In this document: one piece after another, positions 29,880 to 64,000 of the stretch | Position numbering within the stretch: position 1 is the stretch's first letter | How the letters are laid out: every line of letters begins with the position of its first letter | Assembly: GCA_008632985.1 (NCBI GenBank) | Contig: QPGO01000070.1 | Coordinates: 248,001 to 312,000, forward strand | Direction of reading: 5' to 3' | DNA length: 64,000 nucleotides | Origin: Psammoneis japonica | Lineage: Eukaryota | Translations under genes and position numbers: made by a program | The notes under the pieces: generated by a model | Told to the model about the DNA's origin: nothing | The model's database searches: none | The model's input: the letters and a program-made list of their open reading frames with translations, nothing else

Positions 29880-30125
29880 GTGCAAGCAAGTCTTGGTGAC
29901 CAGCAGGCAGTGTTGGCTTTGTTGGAAGCCATGTTTCTGAATTTCCACTGGAAAGTGGGTGCTGCTGCAGCTGTTGTGGACAAAATGAGCTCACACCACA
30001 GTGTGAGCATCAAAAAGGTGAATCTAGAATTGCTCAGAAGAAAAGCAAAAGACAAGAAACAATTGAGTGTCAGCAAGGGTGATGTGGCAGATGAGACATT
30101 TGTGGAGAACATGTTTGAAAAGAGC
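29880..30125 (+). pseudogene. Truncated first copy of the UDP-glucuronate 4-epimerase pseudogene (tandem duplication ~29521-30125 / ~30389-31015)
   Basis: VVDKMSSHHSVSIKKVNLELLRRKAK...KGDVADETFVENMFEK; upstream aaaaatttgaaagttga... repeated at 30389. Confidence 0.7.
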
Positions 30126-31650: not shown

Positions 31651-32284
31651 AACATGGAATTTGCCAAACCATGGAGTGTTGGGCAGCACAACCCATCAAA
31701 ACAGTTGAAGAGGTGGTGCCAACATCTTGGTTTGAGTGCAAATCATAAAAAAGTGCACTCCAACAGAAAACAAAGTCAAACAAAATACAAAAAGTGACAG
31801 CTGCTGCACGTCAAAACATTTTGAAACACAACAATTAAATGAAAGAGCTCCCCAATCATTTTTTTCCTGCAGCTTTCTGGTCAAACATTGCAGACCACAG
31901 ACATTTTCTGTGATTGGCAATTTCACGATGATTTGTGATTAAAAATGTTGAAACTGGACCTGCATTTCATCTGTGTCTCTGTCTGCAGCACTGTCAGTGA
32001 CGAAGGTTTGGGCTGCCAGCACTCTCTGCCAGAGCTGGCTTCAGAGCTGCTCCTTCAAGTTTGAAGAGTGCTGGGTGTGATGAAGCATCATCATGTGCCA
32101 TGACAGTGAGATGAGCTGGCAAGCTGGTCAAACACCCATGACTTGATCTTTTGCAAATTCATTGCAACACTTGCATGACTCAAGATTTCACCATGGAACC
32201 TTTTGTTGTTGCCATTGTTGTGATCTCATTCTTGATTTGCTGATTGATTTGCAATCCCTTCTAAAGTGCTTCATTTTGTCCACC

Positions 32285-32970
32285 ATGGGAGCCAAGTCTT
32301 CAAAGAGTGAGATGCCATTGGCACACAAATCCATTCAGGAAGGCACTTCTTGGGTGCAGGCAATCCAAGATGTTGAATGTTTGGACTGGAAACAGGGATT
32401 GTCAGATGACAAAATTCAAGCCCAAGCATTGCAACAGAATGATTTGCCAGTTCAGATGGCTGAACAAATCCATTTGGGAAATGCTCACAGCATGAGATCC
32501 ATTGCAACATTGAGAGCTCTGGAAATCATGGCAGCTTTGAACATGGCTGGGCTGCTTGCTTTGAAAAGAGCTGCAGTCAAGGCACATGAAGAGAGTGGCA
32601 CCTTGTGCCATTGCATCACTTCTGAACATGAGCCATTCTTTCATCCACTGCCAGAGAATTGCCAGAAAGAAGCTTTTGATTTTGTGAAGTCATCCACAAG
32701 AAAAAGCAAAGGAAAGTGCATCATTCATGACATGGTGGGAATGAGTTGGTCTGGTCTGGTTGCCACAGCCCACTGCATGATCATGACACAGACACTCGTC
32801 CAGTGCTGGAAACTGCAAAGCATGTTTGAAAGCAGCAAGAAACTGTGGCATCATGCAGCAAAGGCTTTCAGCAACAACAATTGGCAGCCATGGCTCAAGA
32901 GTGAACAATCTTCTTGGAGCAAAGCCCGGCATGGAAGCACCCACAGTCAAGGGTTGCCCGCCACTGCATG
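32285..32970 (+). pseudogene. Decayed dual-specificity phosphatase
   Basis: MGAKSSK start, IHLGNAHS, LNMAG, EAFDFV and GKCIIHDMVGMSWSG (degenerate VHCxAGxNRS). Confidence 0.75.
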
Positions 32971-35730
32971 ACTTTGATGCAATGTGTTCAATGCTTCTCT
33001 TGAGGACAGAGTTCATCCTCTTGAGAAGCTGTTGTCTTCATGCTGATGAGAGGATCTGGCAAGGAGTTTGCTGTGACACAATTCAAGCTGTCAAACACTC
33101 ATCTTTTGAGTGCCTTTGCATGCTGCTGGAGGCTGTCTGGCTTCTTCCAGTTTTAAATTTTTGCCTGATTTTGTGTCAGATGAATTTTCCTGTTGTGCAC
33201 CTGCTCACATGACACATGAATGTGAAAGTTTTGCATGAGCAGTCAGCACCAGGGAAGGTTTGATGCCAGAGCCCTTCTGTTCAAGACAAAGGCACCTCTT
33301 TGTTGGCTGTTGGCATCAACTCCACATGCTGGCTTCCACTGGCAGTGGTGCCTGGGGTTGCCAAAACAAGCTTGACAGAAGACTGGGGGCACAGGGCTGA
33401 GCATTGCACCAACCAAAAAAGTGAGAAGCACTCCAGTGGTGCACCCGCATGCACTCCGCATTGCCACACCTGCTTTCCTCTTTCAGCCAACTGATGCCAT
33501 CTGTCAGTTCTTGTCAGCACATGTTTTCCAACACACTCCTCAGCGCAAACATTTGTTGAAAGTGGTTGTTGTCATTTTTTCAACATTGGTCCTCCCAAGC
33601 TTTAGAGCAACTTTCTTGGGACTCTCCTTCCTGCATTCTCAACTCACAGCACTTCATTTTGCCCCATGCTTCCACAAGCAGTGGGTCAGCTTCTTGGTCA
33701 TCTTTCACAAAGAGCTCTCACCTTGCTTTCTTTTGAACTGAAGTGTGATGCTAAAATTTCCAAGCCTTGTCCACCTTTTCAGGGTGCTTCTCATCTCCAA
33801 GGCATGGCTTGTTTGAAGCCCATTCAACACACAACCAAATTCACACAAGTGTTGCTCAAAAATGTGACAGCTGAAAACTTGTTTTTGCAGTCTCATCACC
33901 AGGCTCAGAGGCAAGCTTGGCATTCTTTTCTGCAAGCAAGCCTTGCTGGCACAACCCAGCTGCAACTGTGGCACATTTCCAAAATCCCCAAGCGCACAAG
34001 CCACTTGTGGCAACAAGCCAGCTGGTCATCACCTTGCTCATCCCCAACAATGATGGCTGCTTTCTTTGTGCCTTAGAAACTCAAAGCATCCCACACTTCT
34101 TTTTGCACATGTCAAGTGCAACTTCCTTGACTGCTGCCAGCCATGAGCTCAGCAATGACAGATTTCTTTTCCAAGTCCTTGTGGCTCTCCAAGCTTTCCA
34201 CCCATTTAGCACAGCTTTGCCACACTGGTCAGCAACAGCAACAAATGCATTTGCTTTGCAGTCAAAGTTCTTTGCCTCATTGTTCATGCACTGATTGCAC
34301 CTCTTGCTGCTGGCGCCTCTTCAGACTGCCTTTTGTCACTGGTCACCAGCTTTGGAGAATGCCCAGCCTCAGCAAATGCTGTGCCCTGCAGGTGTGCAAC
34401 TGGTGTCCTCATTTGTGCTCTCTTGCACATTGTCCAATTTGTTTTGCAACATCTTTGCACTTGCTGAAACAAGCAGCATCACATGAGACACAATGGTGCA
34501 CTTTCACCCTTCACCTCTTTTGCTGCTCTGCCAACTTTGCTCTTTTGCTCCATCTTGACATTCAATCACTTTTTCAAGAGCAGCAGTGCCACATCTTCAA
34601 ACAGAGTGCAAAACAAACCTTTTCCAATCACTTCTTCAACCAGAGAGCAACAAACCTGCTTTTGTCAAAGTTTGGTGCCAGCTTAAATGTCCTGCAACTG
34701 GTGCCAACAGGGGGGCAATGTTGCAGGGCCCTGTGCTCCAAATTGAGAGATGGGCACTGAGCAAATTGTTGCAGAGTTTGCTGTTTTTGGCAACCTTTGA
34801 AAATTGCTCCTGAGTGGCTCACACTGCCACGGAACATTCAGCCAAGTGAGTTGTGCATTCTTCACTTTGCACGCACACATGAGAACTTTTTGTCCCTGAA
34901 TGAGGAGCTTTGCTCCAAGCTCATCTTGGTTCTTGCACAATGCACAGTAGCATTGAACCTGGACAAGCCTTCATTTACCAGGCATGATGACTCTGGCGGG
35001 GGAGGGGCAGTTGAGCACATTGTCCTCATGATGTGGGTCACTTGCAGCAGTTGGCCTGCACCAGTCATGTCAACACCTGCTCAGTGAATCAAGTGTGACT
35101 TGCATGGGCTTGTGCAGTGTGCACCTTTGGGTTGCACATCTCCTGCCACAAGAGCCTCACACAATGCAACACACTGCTGGCATCTGCCAGTTGCAAGCTC
35201 TTTGCACCATCCTTCTTGGAGGTTGGCAGCTCAGGTCTCACATTGCATCCTGTGAGGTGCCTTGTGGATTCCTTGGAGCAGTTTGTTGCTGCTCACAAGG
35301 CACACTCTAGAACAGCTGTTCACCAGCACTGGCTCCTTGAGCCACTGCTTGATGGCCTTGTTGGGATGAGCCTGCTGCAGAGGGGATGGCAGCGATTCCA
35401 GGGTGAGCGATTAGCCTTCAGACTCCTCCGGGATGATGGACATTGCCATTGCTTTGGACTCACAGACATTCGTCCTCGCCCAAAGCTCTTGTTGAAAGGT
35501 TAAAAAAACAAAAAATGGTGGCCACGTGTGCCACTGCTGGAACGGAAGAGATTTCATCTGAAAGGCCTTCCGCTCGAAACATGTAAATAAGCGGAAAGGT
35601 CACCTAAATGCAGTGCATCAGACAATGTTTTCTTAGACTCCCAATCTTTACGAAACACGGTGACGCGCTTCTTAAGTTAGGTTACTTCTTCCGAAACACG
35701 AACGGCGTTTGCGAAAACCACATTGTTTGT

Positions 35731-47300: not shown

Positions 47301-48174
47301 TAGCTGCTGCTTGTTGCAATTCACGAGACTTTTCAAAAGCACGTTTGGGTGTCGTCTTGATGGATCGTTGCGATAGTGCTGCCAAATACTTCATGACAAA
47401 TTTCGTCGTGACCGTCTTGCCCGCACCACTTTCACCCGACACCAAAATGGATTGATTGCAACAACACTCTTCGGTAGAAGAAGAATCAATCGTTTCATCC
47501 ATGCGTCTCATCATGCTTCGAAAGGAAGCATCGGCAATGGCATAAACGTGGGGTGGTAACGTATTATTGGTACGCTTCTTCTTTTGCAAACTACTACTAC
47601 TCGCATCCCAATATCGTTTCATGGTGGCTTCTCCATAAAGACCACGAACATGTTTGAATGGATTCAACGCCAACAGCACGGGCCCCGTTGCCGTATAGAT
47701 TGTATCGTGAGTGTACCAATGTTCCAAACAATGCACGACGGCGGGTTCATGCAAATGAGTCAATTGAATCAAATCACGGGGATATTGCAGTGAACCCGTC
47801 TCTGGATGACGGGGAAGTTCGTTATCCAACAAGACTTGACCCGTTTGCAACACACTTGCCGGCAATACCAACGTATCGTCACCAACATCATCATCAAGTT
47901 TCACCACGACACCACCGTCTTGATGACAACTATCCAACATACTTCCCAACATCCAACCCCATTGTTGATTACGACCATGTTGTTGTTGTTGAGAAGTGGA
48001 ACTGCTGCTCTTGGCAGAAATGCTACCCGCATCACTCTCGGCATCTAAACTCTTGCTATTCACTAATGCAACAGCACCACGTCCGAAACGAGGTATTTTA
48101 GGGTTACGAATTGCATCAATTACACTTGCCTTGATCCAAACGCGTGTAGTTGCTTCGGATGATGATAATGACAT
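44398..48174 (-). CDS. Myosin heavy chain with short tail; several apparent frameshifts
   Basis: GESGAGKT, NPILESFGNARTVRNDNSSRFGKF, LDIFGFE, PHYIRCLKPN, QLGKTKVFLR and one IQ-like motif. Confidence 0.93.
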
Positions 48175-48600
48175 TGTTGTAATTGTAATTGTAGCGGCAG
48201 TTTGTTTTTGTTGTACGTACTGTAGAGCATGGCGGTGGTGGTGTTGCAGGCAGAAAATCTTTTGCTTCGTCTCCGCCCGGCTAACTTGCGCGCGTTGAAT
48301 GTTTAAATTCCAATGATTGGTCCTCATATCCATAATAAATTATTAGTCGTGTCTTGCGATCAACGTACTGTACGGTAAGTGGATTTGCATAGATGCAATG
48401 TCAGTCCCGAACCTACCGTTGGTCATTTTATTCAATGATACAGATAATAAACTTGATACTAATATAGTCATGTGGGATAGAAAATTGAAAAACTGAATAT
48501 CCATGAATATGTTGATAAATAGACTTCCAATGAGAAGCTGACTTGTTCGACCCAATTCGATCTCCCCGTTGAGTTTAAACATGCTGTGCAGCACGGCAGG

Positions 48601-48793
48601 AATGAAATTCTCATGTGCATCCGCATCTCTGTCGAATGCGCACCGGTGCAACCTGCCGTTGCCCAACTTTTCCAACATTTCCCTGGAATGCCCGCCGCCT
48701 CCGAATGTTGCATCTGCACACTGTGGACACCACAGGGCTTCATGGCCAGGTGGCCCACGTGGGGACGGACCTGGCCGGCACGTGAGGGAGCAT
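48601..48793 (-). pseudogene. rsmH: N-terminal fragment of RsmH/MraW 16S rRNA m4C methyltransferase
   Basis: MLPHVP...HLAMKPCGVH...ADATFGGGGHSREMLEKLGNGRLH..AFDRDADA across frameshifts. Confidence 0.75.
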
Positions 48794-48851
48794 CTCTGCA
48801 CCAACTCTCTCCAGCTGGAGGGCCCTCTGCTGGTGTCCAGTCCACCAAGGA

Positions 48852-49129
48852 CCTCAATTGAGGCAAAAACCTCAATTGAGGATGGTGCAAATTGTGTGGA
48901 ATTTGACAGACCGAACGGCGATGCCGGCCAGAATTTTTTTAAGGACTGAAAAACATTTTTGCGAGGGCAGGCATTTACATCGCTGAAATCAACACACTCT
49001 GAGACACAAACTCCACATGTGTTGTGTCTTGCGACTGCAGAGTTTTTGTGCTCGAATCACTGGGAGTTAAGCGACCATTTGGCATCTCTGGCAGGACACC
49101 CACGTAGAACATGCGATCCTCAATTGAGG
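48852..49129. repeat. Three copies of the palindrome CCTCAATTGAGG
   Basis: At ~48852, ~48870 and ~49118. Confidence 0.8.
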
Positions 49130-50577
49130 AAAAATTCCCCGGCAGACTAGACACCAGCCAGCCAAGTGGCAGGAAGGGGACACGGAAAGTCGGGGGAACC
49201 CAAAAAGATGGTGGAATTCTGTCAAATGTGTGTGCTTTTTCTCACTCAAATTTCAACTGTGTGACAAAAACCTTCTGAACACACGTGCTTTTAACGCAGA
49301 TTTAAAAGCTGCGTCTGAGTGCGAAAAAGCAGCATCACCAAGATTTTGTGGGCATGTTGCAGCATTTTGCTGTCATGAACCCGATGACAACACTGCACTG
49401 CTCCCACAGAATGCCTGGATGGCTTCAGCCAAGCTGTTTGAATGGCTTGAAATCGTCTGTTCCATCGCAGACAATCATTGTCGATCGTCGCTTGGTGCAG
49501 ATTTTTGATTTTTGTCATGGCAGAAGATGGGGCTTGGCACAAAAAATTGAGCATGACATCACAAGCACAAGTTCTGCACCATGCTGCACGACAATTTTCC
49601 ACCGTCTTTGCGGGATTGTGTGAAAATGGTGCTTTCGCTGCAAGCACAACTCCATTGCGAACCTGAGCTGGAGAAAAGCACAAACACAGTCTGTTGCCAC
49701 CGGATGCACAGATGAGCTTTTTGACGTGTTCCAGCCGCACGTGAACCAAATCGTGCACAAAAATGACATTTGCGCGATTTTTGCGCAGTCCCCAACTTGC
49801 AATCGAACTTTCACCACCAAAAGCACAGATTTGTGCAAATGCAAATGTTTTGCAACACTGGCAAGACTCGTGTGAGTGTTGCAACATCATTGTTGTTGTG
49901 CTGTCTGTGTTTTTCATTGAGTTAAAAGATTCGCAACACAACGGATGATTTTCGGTGAAAATGTTGCCGTCACTTGGATGTCACCTAAATGTGTCTTTCT
50001 ATGATGCCACTTGGCAGGTTTTCCACCTGCAAAAAAATCTCAGCATAAATCTGCTGATGTGCAATCAGTGTTGAGTCTGCTGAGGAAGTTTGTGACACAT
50101 GTCCCATGAGGATTTGAACACCCCTCAAAAAACTGTTTAAATGTTCACACTCTAGGAGCCTACAAAAGTCAATCCGTCCAAGCATTTTTGTTAAAATGCT
50201 GCATGCACTAAAACACACGTGAATTGCACTCAAAATCCGATTGTCATTTTGTGCATCACCTGGGACTGGAACACGTCTTTTGTTGATTGTCGGTGCACGA
50301 ATTGCAACTGACCTCAAAACATTCAAGCTCAAAAATTCCACCGTCTTTCCGCGCCTCCTTCCTGCGGTGCTGTGATGACTCTTGTCACGATTTTGCACAC
50401 CAGCTGGACAATTCTCCATGCCTTCCAGATGGGCATGCACACCATGATGCCAGCACCGCACGCGCACCGCACCACGATGCAAAACAACAGTCTGTTTGTC
50501 CACCCAGGCGTGGTTCCTTTTCTTCTTTTTTTGACAATGTTGGATGATGTGTGTTTTGACACAAGCCAGCTTCAGCC

Positions 50578-50928
50578 ACAAGTGCCGCCAAAAAACTCAA
50601 AAACTGACATCCTCGTCGGGCAAGCAAAGTGGATTTTGGCCATTTTACGAGAAAAATGAAGCAGAGTTTTTGCTTGTTTCTGCTGGCTTTCTATGGGTGA
50701 TCTCAGCAATTTCTGCACGTCGCTCCGAAGAATGAAGAAAAGCACAAACAACCTGTTCTGCATGGGGTCTCACTCGCGCGACAGCGCGCACGACCACCAA
50801 GATTTTCTTGCACTGGGAGCTCGTTTTCTTACAAAAAAGCAGCTTTCAGGCAAGTGGAAAGTAGATTTTGAGCTGTTTGCCAAGAAAACGTCATGATGTC
50901 AGTCTTTGATTTTTTCGGTGGCACTTGT
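50578..50928. mobile_element. MITE-like element with ~35-bp imperfect terminal inverted repeats
   Basis: acaagtgccgccaaaaaactcaaaaactgacatc vs gatgtcagtctttgattttttcggtggcacttgt. Confidence 0.5.
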
Positions 50929-53879
50929 CAGCCAGCTAAAAGAGCCACGATGAATGCCCCGCAGCTTCCTTCCACTCGAGAGGAGATCATTGTGCACTTG
51001 GTGTTTGGCGATGGAGGCACCCATGATGGCTGGGAGATGTGCTCTGTTGCGCTCTTTCCTTTTGTGTTTGGAATTCCAACAGGACAGGTCTGCCTGACCA
51101 CAAGCGAAGCGGTGAGGCAGCGCGCAGCCACGGCTGACCTGTTGCGGCTTCAAGTGGAAAGCCGCGATGAGCTCTTGTCGACGAACCGACCGCCAGATGA
51201 CGCAGAACATTTCCCCGCTGGCTGTGATTCTTGCTTGCGGGAAATCTGTTGCAGTCATGGGAGCAGCTTTAAAGACATGGCCACAGCACCTCCATGCTCG
51301 ATTTGGGTGATCACGGGGCATGGATTCCCAGTGATCCGGGCCTGCGTCATGCAAACAAGGACAAGTGACGGAGCAAGCCATCAAATCCCTTTCACCGACT
51401 TGCCTGGACCTGCTCCTTCCATTCTTTCCATCATTGACATTTGTGGTTCGCAATGGGATGCCGCTGCCACATTTGGCTGTTTTGCCGCAAATCCAAACAG
51501 GAAATTGAAGAAACGCCGCGAGAGAGTCGCCGCAAGCGATGCCCCTTTTGCCTGCGAAAACGCTGATGCTGCATGGGCTTTTCGGGTTGGGGCCGCGGGT
51601 GATCGTCTGAATCCTCCCAGTGATGAAGACGCTCTTTCGAAAGCTTTCGGGGATGTTGTCGTCTGTTCTGTTCTTGCCGCCGCAAAGGACTTTGCCGACA
51701 ACGACCTCACAGGAACAGACATGGGCTCCCTTTTTGTCCAAAAAATTTCCTGATTGAGTGCTCATCACCGTGACAGGAATGTCCCTGAGAAACATGTGTC
51801 CAACCCAAAAGCCAACCTGCACCGTCCACAGGCGCTGATGCAACATGGACTGTTGGAATTGAATCAGGATGCTTTCAATTGCAGTCTGTTTGCTCGCCAG
51901 AACGAATGGTTCTTGACCCGAGCTCGGATGTGACCTTCTGCTGTGGCGGAAGCCAAGTCCAATCTTGATTGACTGTGTTGTGGTCTGTTTGCAGGCATGG
52001 CACTGCAGCCACCGAAATGCCGTGGATCGTTTGGAGTCGCGTGCAGAGAAACTTTGGTCAAGGCTGTCAGGTTCACTCGGTCCAGGAATCTGCACAACCA
52101 ATGTTCGCCTTGATTGGGACGAGGAAAGAAATTCTCTTGTGCGCTCCGATGATGGGATGCCAATTGAAGCCTGGGCCTTGCCTTGTGGAGATTTGGTGAG
52201 GATTTCTCATCATGTGACAAACATGACAGTCAATGGCAGTTGGGATGACGAGGAGGGGTCTTCGGACGTGGAGCAACCGCCGGCACAAGAAAGCACAGGA
52301 ACAGCAGATGGCGCAGAAGAGAGAGAAACGGCCACAGAAGCAAATGGAGTAGACACAGACAAGGAAAGGTCGCGTCCCACAGTTTCTGCTTAATCGACAT
52401 CCCACAGTTCGACTGTGGAACAACCCATCTGCTGCTCGAGCTCAACCCCAAACCTGCAGTGGTTGTTCTTGTGGGTGTTTGGAGGTGGCAGGCAAAGAGG
52501 TCTCTCGCTGTGATGGTTGAAGAATGAGCCGGATCTTGTGATGGTTCTTTTGCCCATTAGAGTTCGAAACGTGCTGTCGGACGAAAGAGCGCTCCAACTT
52601 CAACAGCTTCCATGGACACACCTGAAGTTGTGTTTGCTTCACCGGCTGAACGCAAGCAGGCCCCATGCGATCAAAGCAATCTTCAAAGGCAAGTTTGTAA
52701 TGTTGTCATTTGTTGACAAACAATTGATTGTTGGTGATTTTTATTTTAAGTTGTCAACACCAAACATTTTAGTTCATTTCACTGTCAACAGGTGGGACAC
52801 TCTCCATCTGGTCACCAGGGCAAAATCTTGTGGTTTGAAGGCTTCTTAGAGGTGGTGCTTTTCCCATCCCACCAACGCACTTCCGTGTTGATGAAAACTG
52901 GCTTCAAGTGGCATCAAGGAGTGCACGGCAAATGTCCCATGAACGTAAGATGAGATTTGTAGAAAAGAACATTTCCAAATGCACCCAAACTGCTGCCAGG
53001 ACAACGGGAGAACTTGCCAGAAAGCAAAGGAAAAATTCCGGTCAATCACGCTCTGGCAGGACTCCCAAAAACTCAGCATGCTGGAGTTTTTTAGGCCAGC
53101 TTCCCCATCTTGCATCGGAAATTTGGTCCCGGAATGCCAACAACGGATCGCGAAAGACGCGGGGGCAGAAGCAGAATCCCACCTGCGGAACATCAACAGG
53201 CAAAACACAGCAACACCGCCACCCGCCACACTTCATGCAAAACACAGTGACACCACCACACTTCACAAAAAGACAAAACAACTGTGTCATTCTGCCTTTC
53301 ATGAGCTCACAGGTGTTCCTTCGAGAAAGGAGACAAGCAAACAATCTTCATTCATTGAGTTCAAGACCGACCCAAAGACAGATCTTTTGGTTGGCATCAT
53401 CCTGTCACAAGAAGATTTGAGGGGTTTTGGATCCGTTCTCTTTGGGTGATGGTGTTGCAGCTCCCTTGCAATCCAGCACATTCACTCCATTTTCACTGAC
53501 CAGCAACCCCATGCCAGCCATGCTTCGCCAATCTGCCCAAAAAGCCATTGCAGTGCTGCGCCACTCCTGGAACAGCAGTCAGCAGTCTTTGTTTTCTTCC
53601 CTGAGGACCACCCCCGGTGTTGGCTTGTGGCTGCTGCTTCTGCCACACTTGCGGTGGCAGCGACGCATGGCCAAGAAGAAGAGAAAGCGCTGGAAGAACA
53701 AGCAGCTGTGGCAATGTCTCCTCGACGGTTCAATGAGGAACCAAAGAACAGCATTCAAATGGCTGCTGCATTGCAGAGTCATCACCCATTCCGTTCCTTG
53801 GCAAGTTTTGCCATTCCAACCAACATCGCGGCACGTGTGAGTTTCTCATGCCCACTGGACCAATGCCACAACTCTTGAC

Positions 53880-54542
53880 GAAACAACAAATGGCTGATTT
53901 CTTGGCAGCAGATGTCCCCTGACTTTGTGATGAGATGGCCTCCTTTCACAACCAGCCACCCCTTTTCTCTCCAGGGCCTTGTCAGAGCAGCAAAGTTTGG
54001 GTGCATCCCCGCGACAAGACAACAGCTCAAGAGTCGGGCATCATCTCTGCAACTGTTGCAAGGACTTTGGTTGCTCAAAAAGCCAGCATCAACCAAATGA
54101 TTCTTGAGTTGCTTCCGCAATGCCATGACGTCTGACAAGGCATGGTTGTCCAGAGCGCGCAAGATGCAAAACTCGCGTTGGTCATGAAAATTCTTCTTGC
54201 GAGACCAAGCTTCGTGCAGCTGCAATCATGTTGCCTTCCACGGCCCCACCTCTCCAATCCTTCCCTCCACAATCACTTTCAATGAGTTGCTTGCGAAGGT
54301 CCAAGGCTTTCTTCCACTGCTCATCTTCCGCCATCCACCCCCAACGACTGAGGAAGAACCATCTGTTGGTTGAAAGAGCCGCCGTGACCGTCAACACCGG
54401 GTCAACACAGTCTCCAGAATGCACCCGACCAGAAGAACCTTGCCAATTTTTGCATCCATTGGCAGTCTTGACAAGTGGTGACCCAGTGGCGTCAGACGAT
54501 GCAAAGTCCTTTTGTTCTGTCCATTGTCACGAGTGCGCCGAG
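53880..54542 (-). pseudogene. Decayed C-terminal fragment of a DEAH-box RNA helicase (HA2/OB region), split by the LTR element; continues at ~59993-60030
   Basis: AACQHLVE|LGALV...LTPLGHHLSRLPMDAKIGKVLLVGCIL...CVDPVLTVTAALS; CLVAGMHPN. Confidence 0.8.
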
Positions 54543-54716
54543 TGCAAGCTCAAGCTGAGGTTGATGTCAAAACAAAGAAGTGAGTAGACCGAAGAGAGGG
54601 AGAGCCCAAGCATCAGCGAGTGCTGGGGAGCGCTGGCGAGCCCTCTCAAACGGCTGCGTTAACCCAACATCCAAAATCAATGCTGTGTGTCAGAAGCATG
54701 CGAGTGAGTTACTGCA
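54543..54716 (-). repeat. 3' LTR
   Basis: Matches 59820-59987 with 14 substitutions and a 6-bp duplication (caagct) by manual alignment. Confidence 0.93.
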
Positions 54717-54838
54717 CTCTTCCCTTCCATGATCCGAAAGAACCAGAGGATCATGCAAAGGGCCAAAACTAGAAACCAAAACCCAAAGAAATCATGACAG
54801 TGGGAGGAAACCCAGGTGTTGGGAAGAAAACCCCCTGA

Positions 54839-57800
54839 TCAACCACGAAAAGGAATCAGGTGCCGAATGTTGAGGCGCTCAACCACATGAGGAGCTCGAC
54901 GAAGCGAAAGCATGCCATTCACATGCACTTGAACAATGGGACAAGGGCCATGAGCATGAGGCTCGAGTCTGGACGGGTCAACCGACTTGATTGGAACTTG
55001 ATCACCCACTTGACAATCGTGGGATCTTCTCTTGGCATTGGCTCTTTGCAAATTGTCGTTGATCAGCATCTGGCGATGGCCTTGGATCATCAACAAGTCA
55101 GCTGGTGCAGGGACATCTAGGATCATGTCACGTCCGAACACCACAGCACCAGGTGAAGTCTGCAAAGAACGGGAAACAGCACAGCGAGTTGCACACATTG
55201 CAGTTGCCAAAGCATCGTCCACAAGGCTAGCTGCATTTTGAAGATTTTGAGGTGGATTAGAAGCAATGAGCGTGTGCAACACATTGCCGATGGTTTGGTG
55301 CATTCATTCACAAATGGCGTTGGCTTGAGGGTTGTACGACGTAGTCGGCACATCGTCAATTCCGGCTTGTTGCAACAGCATCTGAAAATCGCACCCGGTG
55401 AACTCGCCGCCGTCATCGTAGATGCATCGATTCGGTCTGGGATGGCGTGCAAGCCAGCAGTTTTCAAATTGGTTGGCAACATGTCGGGCAGTTTTATTTT
55501 CAATTCTCACAAGTTCAACAAGATTGGAGACAGGATCAATGCAGGTCAATGCCCGAAACTCAATCTCTCCATTCGGCACTTTGATTTTCCACGGGCCAAT
55601 GAGGTCAACCGCCGCTTCCGACCAGGGAGTTAATGGGGCTTCTCGCTCGGGCAACTCTCCACAGCCAGGACCCAAAGTTTTGTTGCGTTGGCAATCAGCA
55701 CAAGAGCGTTCATCACACATGCGACGCAACCCAGGATGACAACAATGAGCCTGGATCGTTTCACGCACACGCTGGCTTCCGGCATGGCCAAGGACGAGAT
55801 GACACCACCGCAAGATGTCGGGCACAAGCGCAGTCGGCAAACAGATTTTCCACTGTCCTGGAGGATCATTCGGTCACGTGCGACAACACACAAGCGGTCG
55901 ATCATTCACATGTTCCACGAGGAAACGATCAGGGTGAGCAACGTGCATCTGGTTCAACTGTTGGTCCTCGAACTGGTGCTCTTGAATGCGTTGTGACATC
56001 ATCGGATTCTGCATCTCTTGCATCGTAGGGCAATTCAAGAAAGAATCGAACAGTTCCGGCTCATCCACAAAGAAAGAGAAGAAGTGTGAGTGGCACTCAT
56101 TTTCAATGTTGCGACAACACTTGAATCGGCATGCACCGAGCTCCAAGTCCTCATCGCGGAAATCCTCAACTTCGGATGGTTCCTCACTCGGCACCAACTT
56201 CGAATCGAGCGGAGCAAAATCAACAACAGTTCCTTTACCCGGAGCCAAGCTCTTCCCTTCAGAGGGAGGATCCGCATGAGGCAAACAAGAAAAACAATCA
56301 GCCAAGACATTCAATCAGCCTTCAATGCAATGAAACTGAGGAGAAAAGTCTTCCAGAAAGAGTTGCCAATGAAGCACGCACTGTGAATTCAAGGTGCAAA
56401 AGGCAAGGTTCTTGTGGTCAGTGAATGCATGCAAGTCGCCGCCAAGGAGCATCGATCGGCATTCTCGGAAGCACATGACAATGGCCAACAGTTCTTTTTC
56501 GATCGTTGAGCAGTTTTGTTGCGCCGCATTTAGCTTTCGAGACCAGCATGCAACAGGTTTTCCATCCTGCACAATCACTGCGCCCATCTGGTGATCACTG
56601 GCATCGGTGTAGACATGGAAGGGTTTGTTGTGATTCGGATGTGCCATTGATGTTTCGGCCGCTGGGACTGCTTTCATCTCATCGAACGCCGCCTGACATT
56701 CCGTTGTCCACGTCCATGAGCCTTCACCTGTAAGATCTGTCAAGGGTTTTGACAGGTGAGAACGCCAAGGCCACACATTGCGACAATGCGTTGCAGCGCC
56801 AAGGAACGAATGAAGCTGCTTGATGTTTTCCGGAGGTTGCATTCGCAGGACAGCCTCCACCTTTTTCTTCCACGGACAAATTCCAGTCGGGGTTGGCCAA
56901 TGCCCAAGGAAATCCGTTTCCTGCACACACCATTCGCATTTCAAGGGATTTACTTTGAACCCAGCTTCTTCCAAGCATTGTAAGAGTTCATCAAGACGGT
57001 CAAGGTGAATGTCAAAGTCATCATCAAATTGAGCGAGATCATCAATGTGCGCATCAACGTCCAAGTCGTGCACAGTTTTCTCAATCAAACATTGCGCAAT
57101 GTCTGGAGCCGGCTTCAGACCCATTGCCAAATGGCAGTGTCGGCACTTTCCAAAGGGTGTCACGATTGTTGTCAATCCTTGGAATCGTCACTCAATTCGA
57201 ACGTGTGGCACATCATTGAGAGGTCCAATTTGGTCAAAAACTTGCACCCGGCTCTCTTCTGCAGCACATCTTGAATGATCAGCAAAGGACAAACCTTGCG
57301 CTTGAGGGCTTTGTTGAGTTCCCGAAAATCGCTGAGCCACCGCACTCGACCATCCTTCTTCGGCCGAATAAAAGCACCAGCAGCCCATTCCGTTGTTCCG
57401 GCTTCTTCAAGAATGCCAAGAGCCACCAAATGATCCAGTTCTCGTTTGAAAGTCTCGAGATCATTGTGCGGCACTGCACGCACTCGAGAATGGTGAGGAA
57501 CAGCGTCAGGATCAATGTCAAGGTGAACTTTTTCGCCAGCATGCTTGCCAAGAGTGCCATCAAAAAGAGCAGTGTGTTTTTCCAATGCGAGGCGTAATTT
57601 TTCTTGATGTTCGGCAGTGAGATGCTTTTGAGCCGACGCTGCTTCAGAAGGGGACGTCTCCTCATGCTTTGCATCGAGGATGTGGCTGTCCCATGCATCA
57701 TCATCGTTGGCCAGCTCATCAGTCAATTCGTCAAGCCACTGCTGGATGCCAATCCGATGGTTTCTTGGTTTCATTGCAATGCTTGAATCAAGCCACTTGA

Positions 57801-58212
57801 CAATTCCGTGTTTGAAATCTAACATGATGCCTGCTCTCGCCAAGAAGTCCTGTCCAAGGATCATGTCGTGCTGGCAAGGTGAGTCAAACACATGCGCATG
57901 CATGCCATCAACACGTTTGGTCTTGTCAAATTCAGGGAGCACCACATCCCGCAGTCGAACGTAATGAGTGGATTTGAATTCTCCCGCCAACGTCCAAAAC
58001 TTCGCAACAATTGGTCCTGTGTCCTCCAATGCTGGTGCCACTCCAACTGGCAACACCCAAGCATGAATCATTGAATGGGTTCCACCAGAGTGAGTGACAC
58101 CCGCATCACGCACTTGCTTTCCTTGTCTTGAATGAATCACGCCGCGAATGAGGTTGCAGGGACCACGTTTAAAGGTTTGGTTGGTTTTGTTTTTGGGGTT
58201 GGTGCAGCGCAC
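54839..58212 (-). pseudogene. pol: gypsy pol (protease, RT, RNase H, integrase), with stops and frameshifts
   Basis: DMILGQDFL, PKKDGRVR..DFRELN, HIDD (from YIDD), YTDASD...EKELLAI...TDHKNL, VDLIGP and NPQANAICE. Confidence 0.92.
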
Positions 58213-58379
58213 TCAAGTCCCACATCGTCTTCGTCATTCACAATGTAATTTTCAAAATCGTCATCATCAAACAAATCAGCAGCATGTGCATGACAATCAT
58301 CAACGCAATCAGTGCAATCATCAAACACACAGGAATCAGGAGCGACACACTCGGACGACAGCTCTTCAAGCTCATTGGG

Positions 58380-59619
58380 TCAGTGTCGACCGCGTCCCGA
58401 GAAGCGACCACCAGGTCGAAAACTTCCCGCTCCACCTCGATGCTCACGAGGCCCTCCTGTGGAATCAAGATGATGGCTTTCAGCAGGCCAATCATTGGGA
58501 GGAGCCATTCTGGCCAGATTGCCGTAACCGCCGCCATCTGCATTGGTTCGGGTGTCGTTTTGACATTGCATGTAGGAGCCACCATCTTCATGATGCTCGC
58601 CGCTGTTGCCACCAGAGTTGCAGTTTCCTCGACCGCCACAATTTCCTCGGCCACCACCACGACCTTGATGGCCACGGCCTTGCCAGCCACGACCTTGATT
58701 TCTGCCACAACCACGACCTCCACCACGACCGCCACCTCGACCACCACGGCCACCACATCCGCAACCGCCACGATCAGTTCTTGGACGGCAGTTGTTGGAG
58801 TCGGGATTCATGGCGCAATCTTTCCACTTGTGATTGTGAGTGTGCAACGGACATTGGGATTCTGGGTCAATGCGATTGCCTTTCTTCTTGTTCGAGCCGC
58901 CTTCATGCTGTCCATCTTTGTGCTTTTTTGACGTCTTCTTGTTCCCACCCGCAAACGATTTCTCCGTGCTCATGTGCTTGACCATTTCCGCCAGTGCATC
59001 ATCTCCAATCATGCGTCCTGCCTGCTCTTGTGCACATCTCACGCCACGACAGAGGGAAGCCATCGAAAATCATCTTCTTTTTCTGGTTCTGAGCAATGAC
59101 TGGATTATTTCCCGGCAACTTGTTTGTGCATTGCACCAAAGTTTCCATTCGATCCGCGTGTGCCTGTGCTTCAACGTCATGCGGCTTTTTAAGAGCAAGC
59201 AAGCATTCAATCATCGTGTCACGAGCTTCAGTTTCACAATGCGACAAACAAAGATGAGCCAACTCTTGGTCGAAACGAGCTGCCGTCTTCTGCTCATCCG
59301 GAATTGCCATGGTGAGATTGGACCATTTGTCTTCAGCTGCACCCGCCAATGCTTCTTCAAAATTGTCAAACAATTCTTCTCCTGCAGTGAATTCGAGTTT
59401 TGCAGCCAGTTTACCAAAACGATCTTCTACAAACAACAACGCTTCAATTCCATCACTTCCGTCAAAACAAGGGCACTTTTTCGTGCGCGTGCTGCCATCA
59501 TCGTGCGATTGAGTCAATTTTGCGAGCTCCAAATCCGAATGAGCAAATTTCGCAGCATGCAAAATGCACGGTTCCTTGAGGCTCTCGTGATTGCTCATCA
59601 GGCCAAGTTGGTCCACCAA
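58380..59619 (-). pseudogene. gag: gypsy gag-like ORF with Cys/His knuckle and Gly/Arg-rich tail
   Basis: Position between the 5' LTR and pol; CPLHTHNHKWKDC; RGG-rich segment. Confidence 0.75.
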
Positions 59620-59819
59620 GAAACTGTTTCAAGTGCTCTACCTTCGATTCGAGTTGTGCCACCCAAATCGCCAAATCCTGTTTGCGTTGTTTTCGTGTCT
59701 CCTTTTCTCGTTTTTGTTCCAAAGCCCAATTCGCTGCCTTCGCTCTCAAAGTTCTTTTCTGTTGTTTCGCAAGCCTGTCAGTTGCATCGTTGTTTCTCAT
59801 TCAGCTCTTTACAATCGAC

Positions 59820-59987
59820 TGCAAGCTGAGGTTGATGTCAAAACAAAGAAGTGAGTAGACCGAAGAGAGGGAGAGCCTAAGCGTCAGCGAGTGCTGGCGA
59901 GCGCTGGCGAGCCCTCTCAAACGGCTACGTTAATCTAACATCCAAAATTAATGCTACACATTAGAAGCGTGCGAGTGAGTTACTGCA
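59820..59987 (-). repeat. 5' LTR
   Basis: See 3' LTR; followed on the + strand by TSD CCGAG. Confidence 0.93.
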
Positions 59988-60324
59988 CCGAGACCTCGAC
60001 CAGGTGCTGACACGCCGCAACTACTTGGGTAACATGTTAAATTACCGTACATAGGGCCTAGTTATGAAAAACTCTATACCGGTATCATGCATTTCACCCC
60101 AAAATGAGTGGCCCACGAGCGACAATCCCGCTTTTACACCAACGTGGAATTCTACGAACAGTCGTATGGTACAGTACCACGAAACGACGTGGTGCGCGCA
60201 ACATGATGACGGGTGTGCGACTGGATGCACGACAGCATTGCAAAAAGAGTTTATTGTTGTTGGCAGAGAGACAACAACATAAAAGTAGAAACTCTTTTTT
60301 TTTTTACAACAAGAGAAACATTAA

Positions 60325-63300
60325 ATGAGCGAGGGAGTTTCCAATCAAAACAACAAGAGCTCCGAATCAAAAAAGGAAACGTCCAAACATCATCATGCAT
60401 CGTCTCGTAGTAGCGGTCGAGGTGGCAGAGGAGGACGTGGACGTGGTAGAGGCCGTGGTAGTTCAAGAGGTGGAAGAGGTGGACGGGGAGGCAGAGGCTC
60501 GTCGTCGTTGGAGAATACTACAACCGAGCGTTCCTCGACGAAAAAGCTTCAAGAAAGCAATCCGAATGCCGTGGATAGTACAAACGGAGATAAACAACAG
60601 CAGCAGAATTCGAAAAAGAATAAAAAGAAGGAAAATACCACACAACATACTACTACCGGCGGTGGCAGAGGTAGGGGACGTGGACGATCCTTGAGACACA
60701 ACAAACAACGTGGAGGTCGTGGGGGACGTGGTGGACGACACCACCATGCCAGAGATGCAGCAAGCAAGAGTCCCGTGCCTGATGCTGCAGTAGTAGAAGC
60801 AAAAGAGGAGAATGTTATTGAGGAGGTTTCAGACGTTGTTGCAACAACCGAGGCGCCAGTCGTGCCTCCTCTACCTACAGAACCGACTCGTGAAGAAGCA
60901 CAACAAGAGCCACCGCCCGTCACGATGAGACTGTCTTTGCCTCCACCACCCACAAGCATGCCGAAAAAAATGCCCGGAGGTGTTCCCATGATTTTGTCTC
61001 GTTCAACGCCACCCATGAATGATCAAGAACAACACATTGCCGAAACGATGGCTGTCGCTGCACTCGACGATGAAGAAGAAGAAGAGAAAAAGGAGGTGGA
61101 AAAAACTACAACGAGTAAAACCAAAAAGAAGAAAAAGCCAAAAAAGAAAAAGGAAACAGTTGTTGTTCCAGTAGCAGAACCACAAGAACCAGCACCAGAG
61201 CAGGCTGTTAGCACAACGACGGACGCACTTTCGGCCTTACCGGCAGTCGAGGTTTCCATTTCCGAAACGACATTGGTTCAAGTCCGCCGCACGGACTCGT
61301 CCGCGTCCTTGACACAAGCCGCCATGGACAACACTTCTTCCACTTCCAAGAGTCGTCATTCCAAAAAGACTCGCACCAAAAAGAAAAAGAAAAAAGGTCT
61401 TTCGGGTGATGACGCGGCCAATCAAAAGGCGGCACGTCAATTCAATCGTTCGGTACGACTCTGTGTCGAACAAAGCAATCCCGATGCGATGCGGGATATT
61501 TTGCGCAATCCCCAAAATCACAATTTTGCCCTGGACAAGCACGTGTTGGAGACCGTCATGAAGGCATATGTCATGGCGGCCATGTTTGAAGACGCCCTGT
61601 ATTGTTTGCGCAATTGTGCTCTGCCAGCCACGTTGGATTGTCTTCAAACGGAACGGATTCTATTGTGTTTGCCACAAAATTTACGCAACAGCAGTGCCTA
61701 TACGGCGGCCGATATGATTAATGCGCTTTGCATTGCCACGGATTTTTCGCAACCCACCCTCCGGACGTACTTTTTACGTATCGTCCGTGGGATTGCCTTG
61801 GAATTTCTCGAAGAGGCCATGTCGGCACGGGATCGTATTTGTTCGGCTCCCTGTGAACGACTCGTCCGATCGGCACTCTGTGTCGTGGATGCAAAATTGA
61901 AACGGGGCAAAAAGGCTACCGAGTTGGTGGTCCAACCCGGCCATCAGCTCGGGGTCTTTGTGCCGGACACGCTCGAGAATCGTGGCATTCAAGCCGGTGA
62001 TGCGGTTTCCATTCTGCCGTATGCCGGTCCGTATCCCATGAGTGCCGAGAGTTTGGACCGCAACATGATTGAAGCGACCGTCACCAATGCTCAACCATTG
62101 GTATTGCGATTGCAAGACAAGACCAATGCCAATCTCTACGCCATGCTGACAGAAAATGTCGAGGGCAATGTGTACCGGATTGACAAGCTGGCGAATCGCA
62201 TGGGATTCAATCGTCAATTGGCCGCGGCCGTGGCGATTGCTGCAAGTAGTCCCAACCAAGACGACGACGACAACGAAATGGTTTTGTCGAGACGTGATTT
62301 GAGACGGCCGTCACCCGAACTCATCAAGGCGATTTCTGCCATGGACGAAAACATTAATCGCCGCGTTTTGAATTCCAAATCGTTCGATTTGAGACCGGGT
62401 GAAGAAATGACATCGACGGCGGCACTTTGTGCTCAAGCGGTACCGTGGAATGCACACGACGATGATGCCAATAACGATTGTGTCGATCAAGACGGGATTC
62501 GTGCCGCATCCGCCTTGGCATTGGAAAAGTACGGTGCGCTCGAGGGTCTGAATGCGTCGCAACGCATGGCGGTGGAGAGTGCTGCCACCAATCGACTCAC
62601 GCTGTGTCAGGGACCACCCGGAACGGGAAAAACGGCCGTGGCGATTCGTATTGTGCAGCATTGGGCGCGGTTGGCACAATCCGAAGCGACCAATGGTCAG
62701 AATGCCAATCCCATTTTGGCCACGTCCGATTCCAACATTGCTGTCGATAACTTGGTGGAAGGATGTGCCAATGTAGGATTGCGTGTGGTTCGTTTGGGAC
62801 GGCCCGAAGCGATCAGACCCGAGTTGTTGCGTTATTGTATTGACCGTCCGCCAACCAACAATGGCAACAATAGCAATAATAACAACCAGGGGTATGGGAG
62901 TATGTCTGCGGCTGCCTTTAAGGAAAAGATGAAGACGCTCAAGAATGCTCAAGTCATTTGTTGTACGTGTATTGGAAGTGGTGGCGATATTCTGGACAAT
63001 ATGAACTTTGAACGTGTCCTTGTGGATGAGGCCACCCAGGCGACGGAACCCGCCGTGCTGGTGCCCTTGACAAGAGGATGTCGTCAGCTCGTCTTGGTGG
63101 GTGACCACTGTCAGCTCCCGCCAACCGTTTTGAGTACACGTGCCGAAGAGGAGGGATTGGGTGTCCCGCTCTTTTCCCGCATGGTAGCATGCGGAGTACC
63201 GCCTTGCATGCTGGATACCCAGTATAGGATGCACCCTGCCATTGCCATGTTTCCTTCCGATTTGTTCTATGGCGGCAAGCTACGCAATGGTGTCAGCCCC

Positions 63301-64000
63301 CCGGAGCGCCGTCCTCTGGCTGGATTCCCCTGGCCGCGAGAGGAATTCCCCGTTGCCTTTGTTCCAGTCAATCATGGCGTGGAAATGGACGATGGCGTGA
63401 GCAAGCTCAACGAAGCAGAAGCTGCAGCTGCTTGTGATGCGGTGGCGGCCTTGCTGGAGGGAGGACAATGCACTGTTTCGGACATTGCCGTTGTCACACC
63501 CTACGCCGCCCAAGCACGTCTTATTCGGCGCATGACGAGGCAATTGACTCAAAACCGTGGACCGCCCTATGTGGAAGTGTCCTCTACAGATGGTTTTCAA
63601 GGACGAGAAAAGGAGGCTGTGGTGTTTTCGGCCGTGAGAAGCAACGATTATGGTACCGTTGGCTTTGTATCGGACTGGCGCCGTGTCAATGTATCCTTTA
63701 CTCGTGCCAGGCGTGCTCTGATTGTCATTGGTAATGACCAAACATTGAGACGCGGCGACCCTGATACGTGGATGCCTTGGTTGGCGTGGGCCGATGCACA
63801 GGGTGTCAATACCAACAAGCCTGGCGTACCAAGAGGTCGATACGAACCGGAGCAGCTCCGTCGAGTCCGCGGGGGCACAACAGCCGCCGAAATGCTCAAG
63901 GATGTGTTGGCTCGACAGCAAGCACAACTCAGCCAGGCGGAGAAGCAGTTGCAGAAGGCTGAAAGGAACGCCGAAGGTCACATTATCGGAAACAGTGAGG
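60325..64000 (+). CDS. SF1 Upf1/DNA2-NAM7-family helicase with RGG-rich N-terminus; runs off the window (absent from the ORF track)
   Basis: Same frame from ATG 60325 through QGPPGTGKT, VDEATQATEP, LVGDHCQLPP, LDTQYRMHP, DGFQGREKE and NVSFTRAR. Confidence 0.92.
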   Translation, partial: MSEGVSNQNNKSSESKKETSKHHHASSRSSGRGGRGGRGRGRGRGSSRGGRGGRGGRGSSSLENTTTERSSTKKLQESNPNAVDSTNGDKQQQQNSKKNKKKENTTQHTTTGGGRGRGRGRSLRHNKQRGGRGGRGGRHHHARDAASKSPVPDAAVVEAKEENVIEEVSDVVATTEAPVVPPLPTEPTREEAQQEPPPVTMRLSLPPPPTSMPKKMPGGVPMILSRSTPPMNDQEQHIAETMAVAALDDEEEEEKKEVEKTTTSKTKKKKKPKKKKETVVVPVAEPQEPAPEQAVSTTTDALSALPAVEVSISETTLVQVRRTDSSASLTQAAMDNTSSTSKSRHSKKTRTKKKKKKGLSGDDAANQKAARQFNRSVRLCVEQSNPDAMRDILRNPQNHNFALDKHVLETVMKAYVMAAMFEDALYCLRNCALPATLDCLQTERILLCLPQNLRNSSAYTAADMINALCIATDFSQPTLRTYFLRIVRGIALEFLEEAMSARDRICSAPCERLVRSALCVVDAKLKRGKKATELVVQPGHQLGVFVPDTLENRGIQAGDAVSILPYAGPYPMSAESLDRNMIEATVTNAQPLVLRLQDKTNANLYAMLTENVEGNVYRIDKLANRMGFNRQLAAAVAIAASSPNQDDDDNEMVLSRRDLRRPSPELIKAISAMDENINRRVLNSKSFDLRPGEEMTSTAALCAQAVPWNAHDDDANNDCVDQDGIRAASALALEKYGALEGLNASQRMAVESAATNRLTLCQGPPGTGKTAVAIRIVQHWARLAQSEATNGQNANPILATSDSNIAVDNLVEGCANVGLRVVRLGRPEAIRPELLRYCIDRPPTNNGNNSNNNNQGYGSMSAAAFKEKMKTLKNAQVICCTCIGSGGDILDNMNFERVLVDEATQATEPAVLVPLTRGCRQLVLVGDHCQLPPTVLSTRAEEEGLGVPLFSRMVACGVPPCMLDTQYRMHPAIAMFPSDLFYGGKLRNGVSPPERRPLAGFPWPREEFPVAFVPVNHGVEMDDGVSKLNEAEAAAACDAVAALLEGGQCTVSDIAVVTPYAAQARLIRRMTRQLTQNRGPPYVEVSSTDGFQGREKEAVVFSAVRSNDYGTVGFVSDWRRVNVSFTRARRALIVIGNDQTLRRGDPDTWMPWLAWADAQGVNTNKPGVPRGRYEPEQLRRVRGGTTAAEMLKDVLARQQAQLSQAEKQLQKAERNAEGHIIGNSE

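Follow-up and report, generated by a model that had tools for sequence, protein, structure and literature searches.

We analysed a 64,000-bp stretch of the genome of the diatom Psammoneis japonica (assembly GCA_008632985.1, contig QPGO01000070.1, positions 248,001 to 312,000 of the forward strand; hereafter the window, with position 1 as its first letter), and focused on a Ty3/gypsy long terminal repeat (LTR) retrotransposon that is almost devoid of the dinucleotide TpA. The element was delimited by its LTRs, target-site duplication, polypurine tract, Pfam domain order and the tiling of its pol pieces along a profile built from 52 full-length relatives, and it is made up as follows.

54543-59987, minus strand: complete Ty3/gypsy LTR retrotransposon.
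59820-59987, minus strand: 5' LTR in element orientation, 168 bp, TG...CA.
58380-59628, minus strand: gag region of two overlapping open frames with an RGG-rich stretch inside, without a Pfam match.
57172-58212, minus strand: pol piece 1, protease and N-terminal reverse transcriptase (RT), profile positions 20-357, stopping at a frameshift near 57175.
56315-57187, minus strand: pol piece 2, C-terminal RT and RNase H, with HIDD for YIDD, DASDH and PVACW.
55874-56314, minus strand: pol piece 3, linker, closed by an in-frame TGA.
55304-55873, minus strand: pol piece 4, integrase zinc finger and core, closed by an in-frame TGA.
54839-55303, minus strand: pol piece 5, integrase C-terminus, with a TGA stop at the natural end of pol.
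54717-54730, minus strand: polypurine tract GGAAGGGAAGAG (element orientation), adjoining the 3' LTR.
54543-54716, minus strand: 3' LTR, 174 bp, TG...CA, a 6-bp duplication counted in.
54538-54542 and 59988-59992, no strand: left and right copies of the perfect 5-bp target-site duplication CCGAG.

The Pfam order, with RVT_1, RT_RNaseH and RT_RNaseH_2 upstream of Integrase_H2C2 and rve, is that of Ty3/gypsy elements, and the five pol pieces tile positions 20-1131 of the 1133-position profile, broken only by one frameshift and in-frame TGA codons. These breaks differ among copies of the family: the extra G at the frameshift site near 57175 is present in part of the other copies in a deep public sequencing run (run X1; k-mer depth of unique DNA 56-65), and the TGA that closes pol piece 2 (place 56317) reads CGA in other copies. 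Diatoms of the genera Cylindrotheca, Nitzschia, Epithemia, Ditylum and Pseudictyota account for the named relatives of the element, and no family copy above 67% identity was found in a search of the "longer" and "near" length classes of the protein collection. The Pfam search returned no protease match in this copy itself, and tblastn with the 52 pol relatives gave 105 hits in the window, none of which was a gypsy remnant outside the element. The outer end of the 3' LTR carries a 6-bp duplication of CAAGCT (54543-54550) that is missing from the 5' LTR.

The element contains 42 TA dinucleotides versus approximately 340 expected from base composition (observed/expected ratio, o/e, 0.12), while CpG stands at 0.83, CA at 1.58, TG at 1.32 and G+C content is unchanged (0.50 versus 0.48); outside the depleted blocks described below, the window has a TA o/e of 0.57 and a CG o/e of 1.00. 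This composition was not found among 80 related gypsy loci from metagenomes, which served solely as a baseline and whose TpA o/e spans 0.42-1.0, with none below 0.42. We then compared pol with its relatives column by column. Among the 23 columns with Tyr in at least 70% of the 52-relative profile, the element has Tyr in 1 and His (CAY), Cys (TGY) or Arg (CGT) in 10, 10 and 2, respectively, whereas 397 of the 457 remaining conserved columns are unchanged (87%; Fisher p = 2e-17). Asn (19/19), Lys (23/27), Phe (23/26) and Ile (16/19) columns are mostly kept, which indicates that A and T outside TpA are spared and that there is no general drive from AT to GC, and the absence of His>Arg and Gln>Arg changes among conserved pol columns indicates that CpA is not attacked. 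A single TA>TG or TA>CA step accounts for 35 of the 82 changed conserved columns, which besides Tyr include GTA>GCA, CTA>CCA, TTA>TCA and, after a T, A>G at the first codon position; a single CpG>TG or CpG>CA step fits another 17 (13 of them Arg to His, Cys, Gln or Trp), and 30 fit neither. The two Tyr>Arg sites (TAT>CGT) require two hits or another ancestral residue, and we leave them without explanation. All four pol stops are TGA, and TAA and TAG are rare (16 + 17 and 13 + 10 on the two strands, compared with 103 + 166 for TGA). With these two stops nearly absent, TA-poor DNA carries long open frames on both strands, of 281-329 amino acids on the element's non-coding strand.

At integration a retrotransposon has identical LTRs, as both are made from a single template. 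Those of this element are 91.6% identical in nucleotides and 99.4% identical in a purine/pyrimidine alphabet, with 14 differing positions, 13 of which are transitions.

TA versus TG or CA: 6 sites, 6 positions (4 CA/TA and 2 TG/TA).
TG versus CA: 2 sites, 4 positions (ancestral TA, less likely CG).
CG versus CA: 2 sites, 2 positions.
Other transition: 1 position.
Transversion: 1 position.

Because the LTRs differ at TA/TG/CA sites and lost tyrosines are divided equally between His and Cys, the process worked on integrated DNA and on both strands. It did not affect the two LTRs equally. The 3' LTR, which lies deep in a TA-poor block, keeps 3 of 11 detectable ancestral TA and 7 of 10 CpG, and the 5' LTR, 340 bp from the start of a helicase gene, keeps 9 of 11 and 10 of 10, respectively (Fisher p = 0.03); identical contexts in the two also read differently (TGTGTGT versus TACACAT). 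Differences of neither TA nor CpG type number 2 in approximately 126 positions, or approximately 0.8% per lineage, and since about 90% of internal TpA was lost over the same time, the TpA rate may lie two to three orders of magnitude above background, an order-of-magnitude figure taken from only two background differences. For pol, the Tyr codons of the relatives make TA the certain ancestral state.

These results agree with most of a preliminary description of this DNA. It had reported that TpA is nearly absent with CpG still common (o/e 0.12 versus 0.83) and that conserved Tyr has become His or Cys (20 of 23 columns, against one retained Tyr), and both observations hold; eight of its nine Tyr examples fall on conserved-Tyr columns, and the ninth, EYRSM>ECRSM, is ambiguous, the consensus of the relatives being Phe. 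That a lack of TA might be native to the element, a possibility it had raised, is contradicted by the 80 relatives, all with a TpA o/e of at least 0.42, and by the Tyr of the profile columns, and the A>G changes are enriched at TpA as it had anticipated, with TAY lost while Asn, Lys, Phe and Ile were kept. Moreover, its proposal of a TpA-specific A:T>G:C process on genomic double-stranded DNA is supported by the LTR differences and by the equal His and Cys counts, the latter (10 CAY, 10 TGY) also confirming hits on both strands. The process outpaces CpG decay, as had been proposed (1 of 23 Tyr columns retained against 22 of 35 Arg columns), and is neither fungal repeat-induced point mutation (RIP), with which the depletion of TpA at an unaltered G+C of 0.50 is at odds, nor decay of 5-methylcytosine (5mC), which cannot remove TpA.

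Segmentation of the window on TpA density revealed five TA-poor blocks, which together cover 29,250 of the 64,000 bp.

1-1050, no strand: block 1, TA o/e 0.05, CG 0.18, extending past the window edge.
9551-11950, no strand: block 2, TA o/e 0.04, CG 0.25.
19651-21900, no strand: block 3, TA o/e 0.10, CG 0.17.
23401-35550, no strand: block 4, TA o/e 0.05, CG 0.15, TG 1.81, CA 1.92, without recognisable domains.
48501-59900, no strand: block 5, TA o/e 0.10, CG 0.73.

Besides the element, block 5 comprises a repeat of very high copy number and single-copy-depth DNA. On the right it ends approximately 90-140 bp inside the 5' LTR, and TpA density is normal from 60022 onward. The other four blocks are CpG-poor, with TG and CA at 1.7-2.1 times expectation, and represent older targets in which CpG has also been lost, compared with codon losses in the young element of 96% for Tyr and at most 37% for Arg. 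Across 1-kb windows, TA o/e is correlated with CG o/e (Spearman 0.67) and inversely with TG + CA (-0.81). Loss of CpG is the footprint of cytosine methylation, and because TA tracks CG, the TpA process appears to operate in the same, probably methylated and silent, domains. These results suggest that its target is methylated, silenced chromatin rather than repetition as such. An old internal duplication in block 4 (29523-30124 and 30390-31015) differs by 119 transitions, 43 transversions and 24 TG-versus-CA sites. Old targets seem to lose all detectable homology: in a Pfam scan (E <= 0.1) of 125 open frames of at least 85 amino acids from the TA-poor blocks other than that of the element and from their margins, none reached the gathering score.

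Surviving TpA in the TA-poor blocks lies mainly in YTAR contexts (Y, pyrimidine; R, purine), as seen from the density of each context relative to the non-depleted rest of the window.

TTAA: 0.69.
TTAG: 0.45.
CTAA: 0.32.
CTAG: 0.24.
ATAT: 0.03.
GTAC: 0.02.
ATAC: 0.02.
GTAT: 0.013.

The young element follows the same trend when set against its 80 relatives, with ATAC/GTAT, ATAG/CTAT and ATAT at 0, GTAC at 0.05, ATAA/TTAT at 0.07, and TTAA, CTAG and CTAA/TTAG at 0.23-0.32. We tentatively read this as a per-strand target preference of TAT ~ TAC >> TAG > TAA, and most contexts fit a roughly additive two-strand model.

We further examined copy number in run X1, in which the element family stands at approximately 35-55 times single-copy depth. 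The adjacent 51338-54005 is as TA-poor as the element and has single-copy depth (59-66), a measure that leaves copies less similar than the >85% threshold uncounted and is compatible with spread from flanking repeats. A 2791-bp X1 contig over the TA-poor 51770-54560 shows 4 differences from the window, and the LTR edges (54560 and 59963) are where X1 contigs end, as for a genuine repeat. The alleles private to the window are also present at about single-copy depth: at place 56750 the other letter takes 1574.6 of a total depth of 1628.8, leaving approximately 54 for the window's own allele, and at place 58763 it takes 1814.6 of 1875.5, leaving approximately 61. The preliminary description had asked whether accurate reads might show TA at these positions; the X1 contigs, possibly the assembly's own data, reproduce the TG/CA state, which argues against a base-calling artefact. 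Its suggestion of a repeat-induced, RIP-like trigger fared less well, in that single-copy-depth DNA is equally TA-poor and the equally repeated LTRs are unequally hit; for these two reasons chromatin-domain targeting fits better than homology sensing. The single-copy-depth part of block 5 includes a further coding remnant.

53785-54225, minus strand (53785-54526 in the wider delimitation): C-terminal part (HA2/OB region) of a DHX36-like DEAH helicase, present as a remnant, E 2.7e-4, depth 64, single-copy.

This remnant abuts the insertion site, lacks an N-terminal half and has His or Cys where a solved relative has Tyr. It could represent a pseudogene, a fragment that was captured, or a piece of an older insert of foreign origin.

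Other features of the blocks and of the DNA around them were recorded as follows. The interval 49337-50670 has a summed k-mer depth of approximately 8,000-15,000 in X1 versus about 60 for unique DNA (>100 times) and many variant joints, which suggests a very abundant dispersed repeat; tandem repeats, an Rfam family, a Pfam match and obvious coding sequence were all looked for in it and none was found. A 435-amino-acid frame at 50902-52206 (minus strand) was considered as a gene and rejected, with no PDB match and one repetitive match of 25% identity among 1.84 billion representatives, and we treat it as non-coding. Within block 4, a 274-amino-acid open frame at 32147-32968 (plus strand) has weak similarity to dual-specificity phosphatases (Pfam E 0.003; PDB E 0.1), with His for the relatives' Tyr and Trp for the active-site Arg, a tentative hint that this 12-kb block once held genes. 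The same block has a 372-bp palindrome (25188-25559) that matches its reverse complement at 89.6% identity when purines and pyrimidines are each merged and whose arms have since diverged by 37 transitions, 11 transversions and 8 TG-versus-CA sites. A dispersed repeat of approximately 230 bp (4573-4802 and 14021-14276) lies in otherwise normal intergenic DNA, its copies being 72% identical in nucleotides and 83% in purines/pyrimidines, with mostly CpG-type and some TA-type differences. A silicon transporter gene (5086-6855, minus strand; Pfam PF03842, E 5e-151) has a best public relative of 84% identity and, together with the diatom names among the element's relatives, supports a diatom host. 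The helicase gene beyond the 5' LTR (60325-63999, plus strand) is an intact, intron-free UPF1/SEN1-like superfamily 1 gene (AAA_11/AAA_12) with a long RGG-rich N-terminus that starts 340 bp from the element. A contig of 3989 letters from another run (X2; depth 40, transcript-like in look) spans 60295-64000; run X2 contains gene parts only, with no depth across 48003-60008.

The preliminary description had taken the process to be undescribed, a claim that does not stand, given that a TpA-only signature has been measured de novo in the chlorarachniophyte Bigelowiella natans. According to the available text of that preprint, 231 of 302 nuclear single-nucleotide mutations in mutation-accumulation lines fell in integrated giant-virus and virophage regions, where nearly all were A>G or T>C and those all on TpA, in some lines only and at an approximately 1000-fold excess (Mettrop et al. 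2026, bioRxiv 10.64898/2026.01.13.699255). The same text describes TA-poor, CA + TG-rich clusters in the B. natans genome, with reverse transcriptase and DDE domains enriched in TA-poor coding sequences, and its authors put forward an ADAT2-like enzyme that would deaminate adenine in DNA (bioRxiv 10.64898/2026.01.13.699255).

Taken together, it is highly probable that a real, DNA-level, TpA-specific process operated here after integration. In the account we favour, a Ty3/gypsy element inserted here, generating the CCGAG duplication, and the inserted copy and the silent DNA to its left were then hypermutated from A:T to G:C at TpA in chromosomal double-stranded DNA. A hit on the top strand gives TpG and a hit on the bottom strand CpA, in equal numbers because TpA is self-complementary. 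The process erased approximately 90% of TpA and turned nearly all TAY Tyr codons into Cys or His, the catalytic YxDD of the reverse transcriptase among them, and by its nature makes no stop codons, with 5mC decay of CpG proceeding more slowly within the same domains. At the chemical level, an enzyme would deaminate adenine to hypoxanthine in 5'-TpA-3', favouring a 3' pyrimidine (TAY), and hypoxanthine would be copied as G at the next replication; that the agent is an adenine deaminase we consider a little short of an even chance. Targeting by chromatin state and a role in defence are likewise suggestions. We put the probability of this account as a whole at approximately 0.6.

Several observations weigh against it. 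Differences among copies could be viewed at base level for 40 of approximately 530 variable places, with approximately 40 other copies, and among the places listed TA-type differences make up 7 of 36 and CpG-type differences 17 of 36; with so few of the former, part of the internal TA loss could come from an already mutated template. In the LTRs, TA would be ancestral by analogy with pol rather than by outgroup, and the two TG/CA sites could stem from CG instead of TA. The context preference is drawn from survivors, back-mutations included, and from small counts. In addition, run X1 derives from the sole sample with this DNA, possibly the assembly's own data, and its platform is unrecorded.

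The first of these points leads to the alternative that most internal TpA loss predates the insertion, a hypermutated non-autonomous copy having been amplified by trans-mobilisation, segmental duplication or gene conversion. A pol from which 22 of the 23 conserved Tyr are missing is necessarily non-autonomous, but its family has reached the depth given above; at 56750/56751 approximately 97% of the other-copy depth has CA where this copy has TG, and CpG-type changes predominate among the private differences of this copy that have the best support. However, at least six unambiguous TA-type changes were gained at this locus within a 168-bp LTR pair, other copies show TA, TG or C-TG variants at the LTR edge, and the contigs are mostly 90-99% alike, which fits our estimate of approximately 8% for independent loss over that of approximately 3% for shared loss. 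Among the places that vary between copies, 440 of 529 are transitions; their breakdown (A>G 102, G>A 125, C>T 103, T>C 110) cannot tell independent from shared TA loss and was not used. We regard earlier loss as unlikely, and it would alter the timing of the process, not its existence.

The favoured account could also be right about the process and wrong about the base attacked. A TET/JBP-type oxidase or similar enzyme might convert thymine at TpA in silent chromatin to 5-hydroxymethyluracil or 5-formyluracil, which would mispair with G; the outcome in sequence would be indistinguishable, T>C being A>G on the other strand (His:Cys 10:10). Dinoflagellate DNA has 5-hydroxymethyluracil preferentially at TpA and TpC, and 5-formyluracil is mutagenic, giving rise to A:T>G:C transitions. 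The context preference would then become one for a purine 5' of the T (RTA), for which we know of no supporting enzyme specificity, and the authors of the B. natans preprint favour adenine deamination in its available text (Mettrop et al. 2026). Thymine oxidation is a distinctly doubtful choice of agent.

Misreading of a modified base at TpA in a genome that is truly TA is very improbable. The runs with this DNA all come from one sample and one study, with the platform unrecorded, but the X1 contigs at a depth of 56-65 match the window, private alleles included, identical LTR contexts have different outcomes, and the old blocks combine the same TpA loss with CpG decay. The spectrum in B. natans was also called from Illumina data, as its preprint's available text states (Mettrop et al. 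2026). Moreover, we found that 6 of 240 public relatives (gypsy pol fragments P0154, P0186, P0187, P0159, P0130 and P0139, from ena, jgi and ncbi sources, on contigs of up to 116 kb) lack 56-100% of the conserved Tyr, mostly through His or Cys, and their choice differs from that of this copy; YIDD, for example, reads HIDD in the element and P0187 but CIDD in P0159 and P0139. The Tyr>His/Cys footprint is thus present in other public records, although the six relatives could even be of the same species.

Editing of double-stranded retrotransposon RNA from A to inosine (I) by an ADAR-like enzyme before reverse transcription has even less to recommend it. ADAR favours a 3' G, and the 3' preference here is for a pyrimidine. 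The two LTRs of one copy differ at TA sites, changes on the coding and non-coding strands are equal (10 His versus 10 Cys), and non-retroelement DNA at single-copy depth, the helicase remnant included, is equally depleted; the point in favour is that ADAR prefers a 5' U, as mentioned in the available preprint text (bioRxiv 10.64898/2026.01.13.699255). The reading that needs no mutation process at all (a composition native to the family, counter-selection of TpA, or gene conversion between copies with a bias towards GC) is the least credible, for although host genes are also mildly TpA-poor (o/e 0.57), none of the 80 relatives lies below a TA o/e of 0.42, catalytic and structural Tyr are destroyed, and a general AT>GC drive is ruled out by G+C (0.50 versus 0.48) and by the kept A/T of AAY, AAR, TTY and ATH codons.

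If the process measured in B. natans also operates in a diatom, it would be a wider feature of marine protists, spanning at least stramenopiles and Rhizaria, and would, if true, add to fungal RIP a second type of genome defence by mutation. One tentative generalisation, which we hold to be rather less than likely, is that diatoms and chlorarachniophytes share a dedicated genome defence in which a natural adenine deaminase, recruited to methylated and silent chromatin, turns TAY into TGY or CAY on either strand, hundreds of times faster than background, and kills transposons and integrated viruses through the loss of their Tyr codons, with the frames left open. Two distant hosts would permit phylogenetic profiling of shared genes with a deaminase fold or a base-modifying function, and the near-saturation, the link with CpG decay, the edge effect and the context preference make the hunt for the enzyme tractable. 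A natural, context-defined enzyme that acts from A:T to G:C on chromosomal DNA would interest the base-editing field. Since the process eliminates TAA and TAG and is unable to generate stops, the mutated DNA is rich in long, false, Tyr-free open frames, by which gene finders are probably misled. It would also constitute a force from AT to GC that opposes the usual GC>AT mutation bias over a large part of the genome (46% of the window).

We compared this footprint with the systems it most resembles. Fungal RIP converts CpA to TpA, makes TpA and stop codons, and leaves DNA AT-rich. Like RIP, the process described here makes dinucleotide-specific transitions after integration, on both strands, and inactivates transposons; unlike RIP, it destroys TpA, no stops arise and G+C is unchanged, and the unequal hits on the LTRs and the hits on single-copy-depth DNA weigh against simple homology sensing. 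APOBEC3 (C>U on cDNA) and ADAR (A>I on double-stranded RNA) act before integration and on one strand. Their restriction of retroelements by editing-type hypermutation is similar, and ADAR shares the 5' U/T preference, but here the LTRs diverged after integration and the strands are equally hit. Decay of 5mC at CpG likewise yields TG and CA and has affected the same blocks (CG o/e 0.15-0.25 in the old ones), but cannot remove TpA and is the slower of the two here. The A>I change read as G that we propose is the chemistry of TadA, ADAT2 and TadA-derived base editors. The TadA target A34 follows U33, in the context U-A-C in bacterial tRNA-Arg, which would match the TAY preference; the natural substrate of these enzymes differs, being a tRNA loop. 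Activity of these enzymes on DNA has been engineered. It has also been reported for ADAT2 from amphioxus and from trypanosomes, in work that the available text of the B. natans preprint cites (bioRxiv 10.64898/2026.01.13.699255).

Our full-text literature search returned the B. natans preprint as the only description of the TpA signature and none for diatoms. The main text of the preprint, as available, makes no mention of diatoms and gives no trinucleotide context; the available main texts of Maumus 2009 (PMC2806351) and Hoguin 2023 (PMC9998398) contain nothing on hypermutation or deamination, nor on dinucleotides in the former or TpA in the latter; and mutation accumulation in P. tricornutum, in the part of the report available (PMC6604790), showed the usual bias of GC>AT, with no effect at TpA. 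As far as this search reaches, an earlier description from a diatom thus appears to be absent. The case of B. natans, insofar as its preprint is available, resembles ours in the near-exclusive transitions (13 of 14 LTR differences here), the restriction to TpA, the two-strand products TpG and CpA, the loss of TA with gain of CA + TG, and the confinement to discrete regions, which here are five blocks with a TA o/e of 0.04-0.10 versus 0.57 and a border inside the 5' LTR. Our rate, two to three orders of magnitude on a rough estimate, is compatible with its approximately 1000-fold excess. The two cases differ in that our host is a stramenopile and that of the preprint a rhizarian, that mutations were seen there de novo and are deduced here from the sequence, and that depletion is deeper here (TA o/e 0.04-0.12 versus 0.45 in the giant-virus region). 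Overall, relative to the published account in its available form, the new observations are the stramenopile host, the near-saturation, the co-location with CpG decay, the weaker effect at the edge next to an active gene, and the apparent preference TAY >> TAG > TAA.

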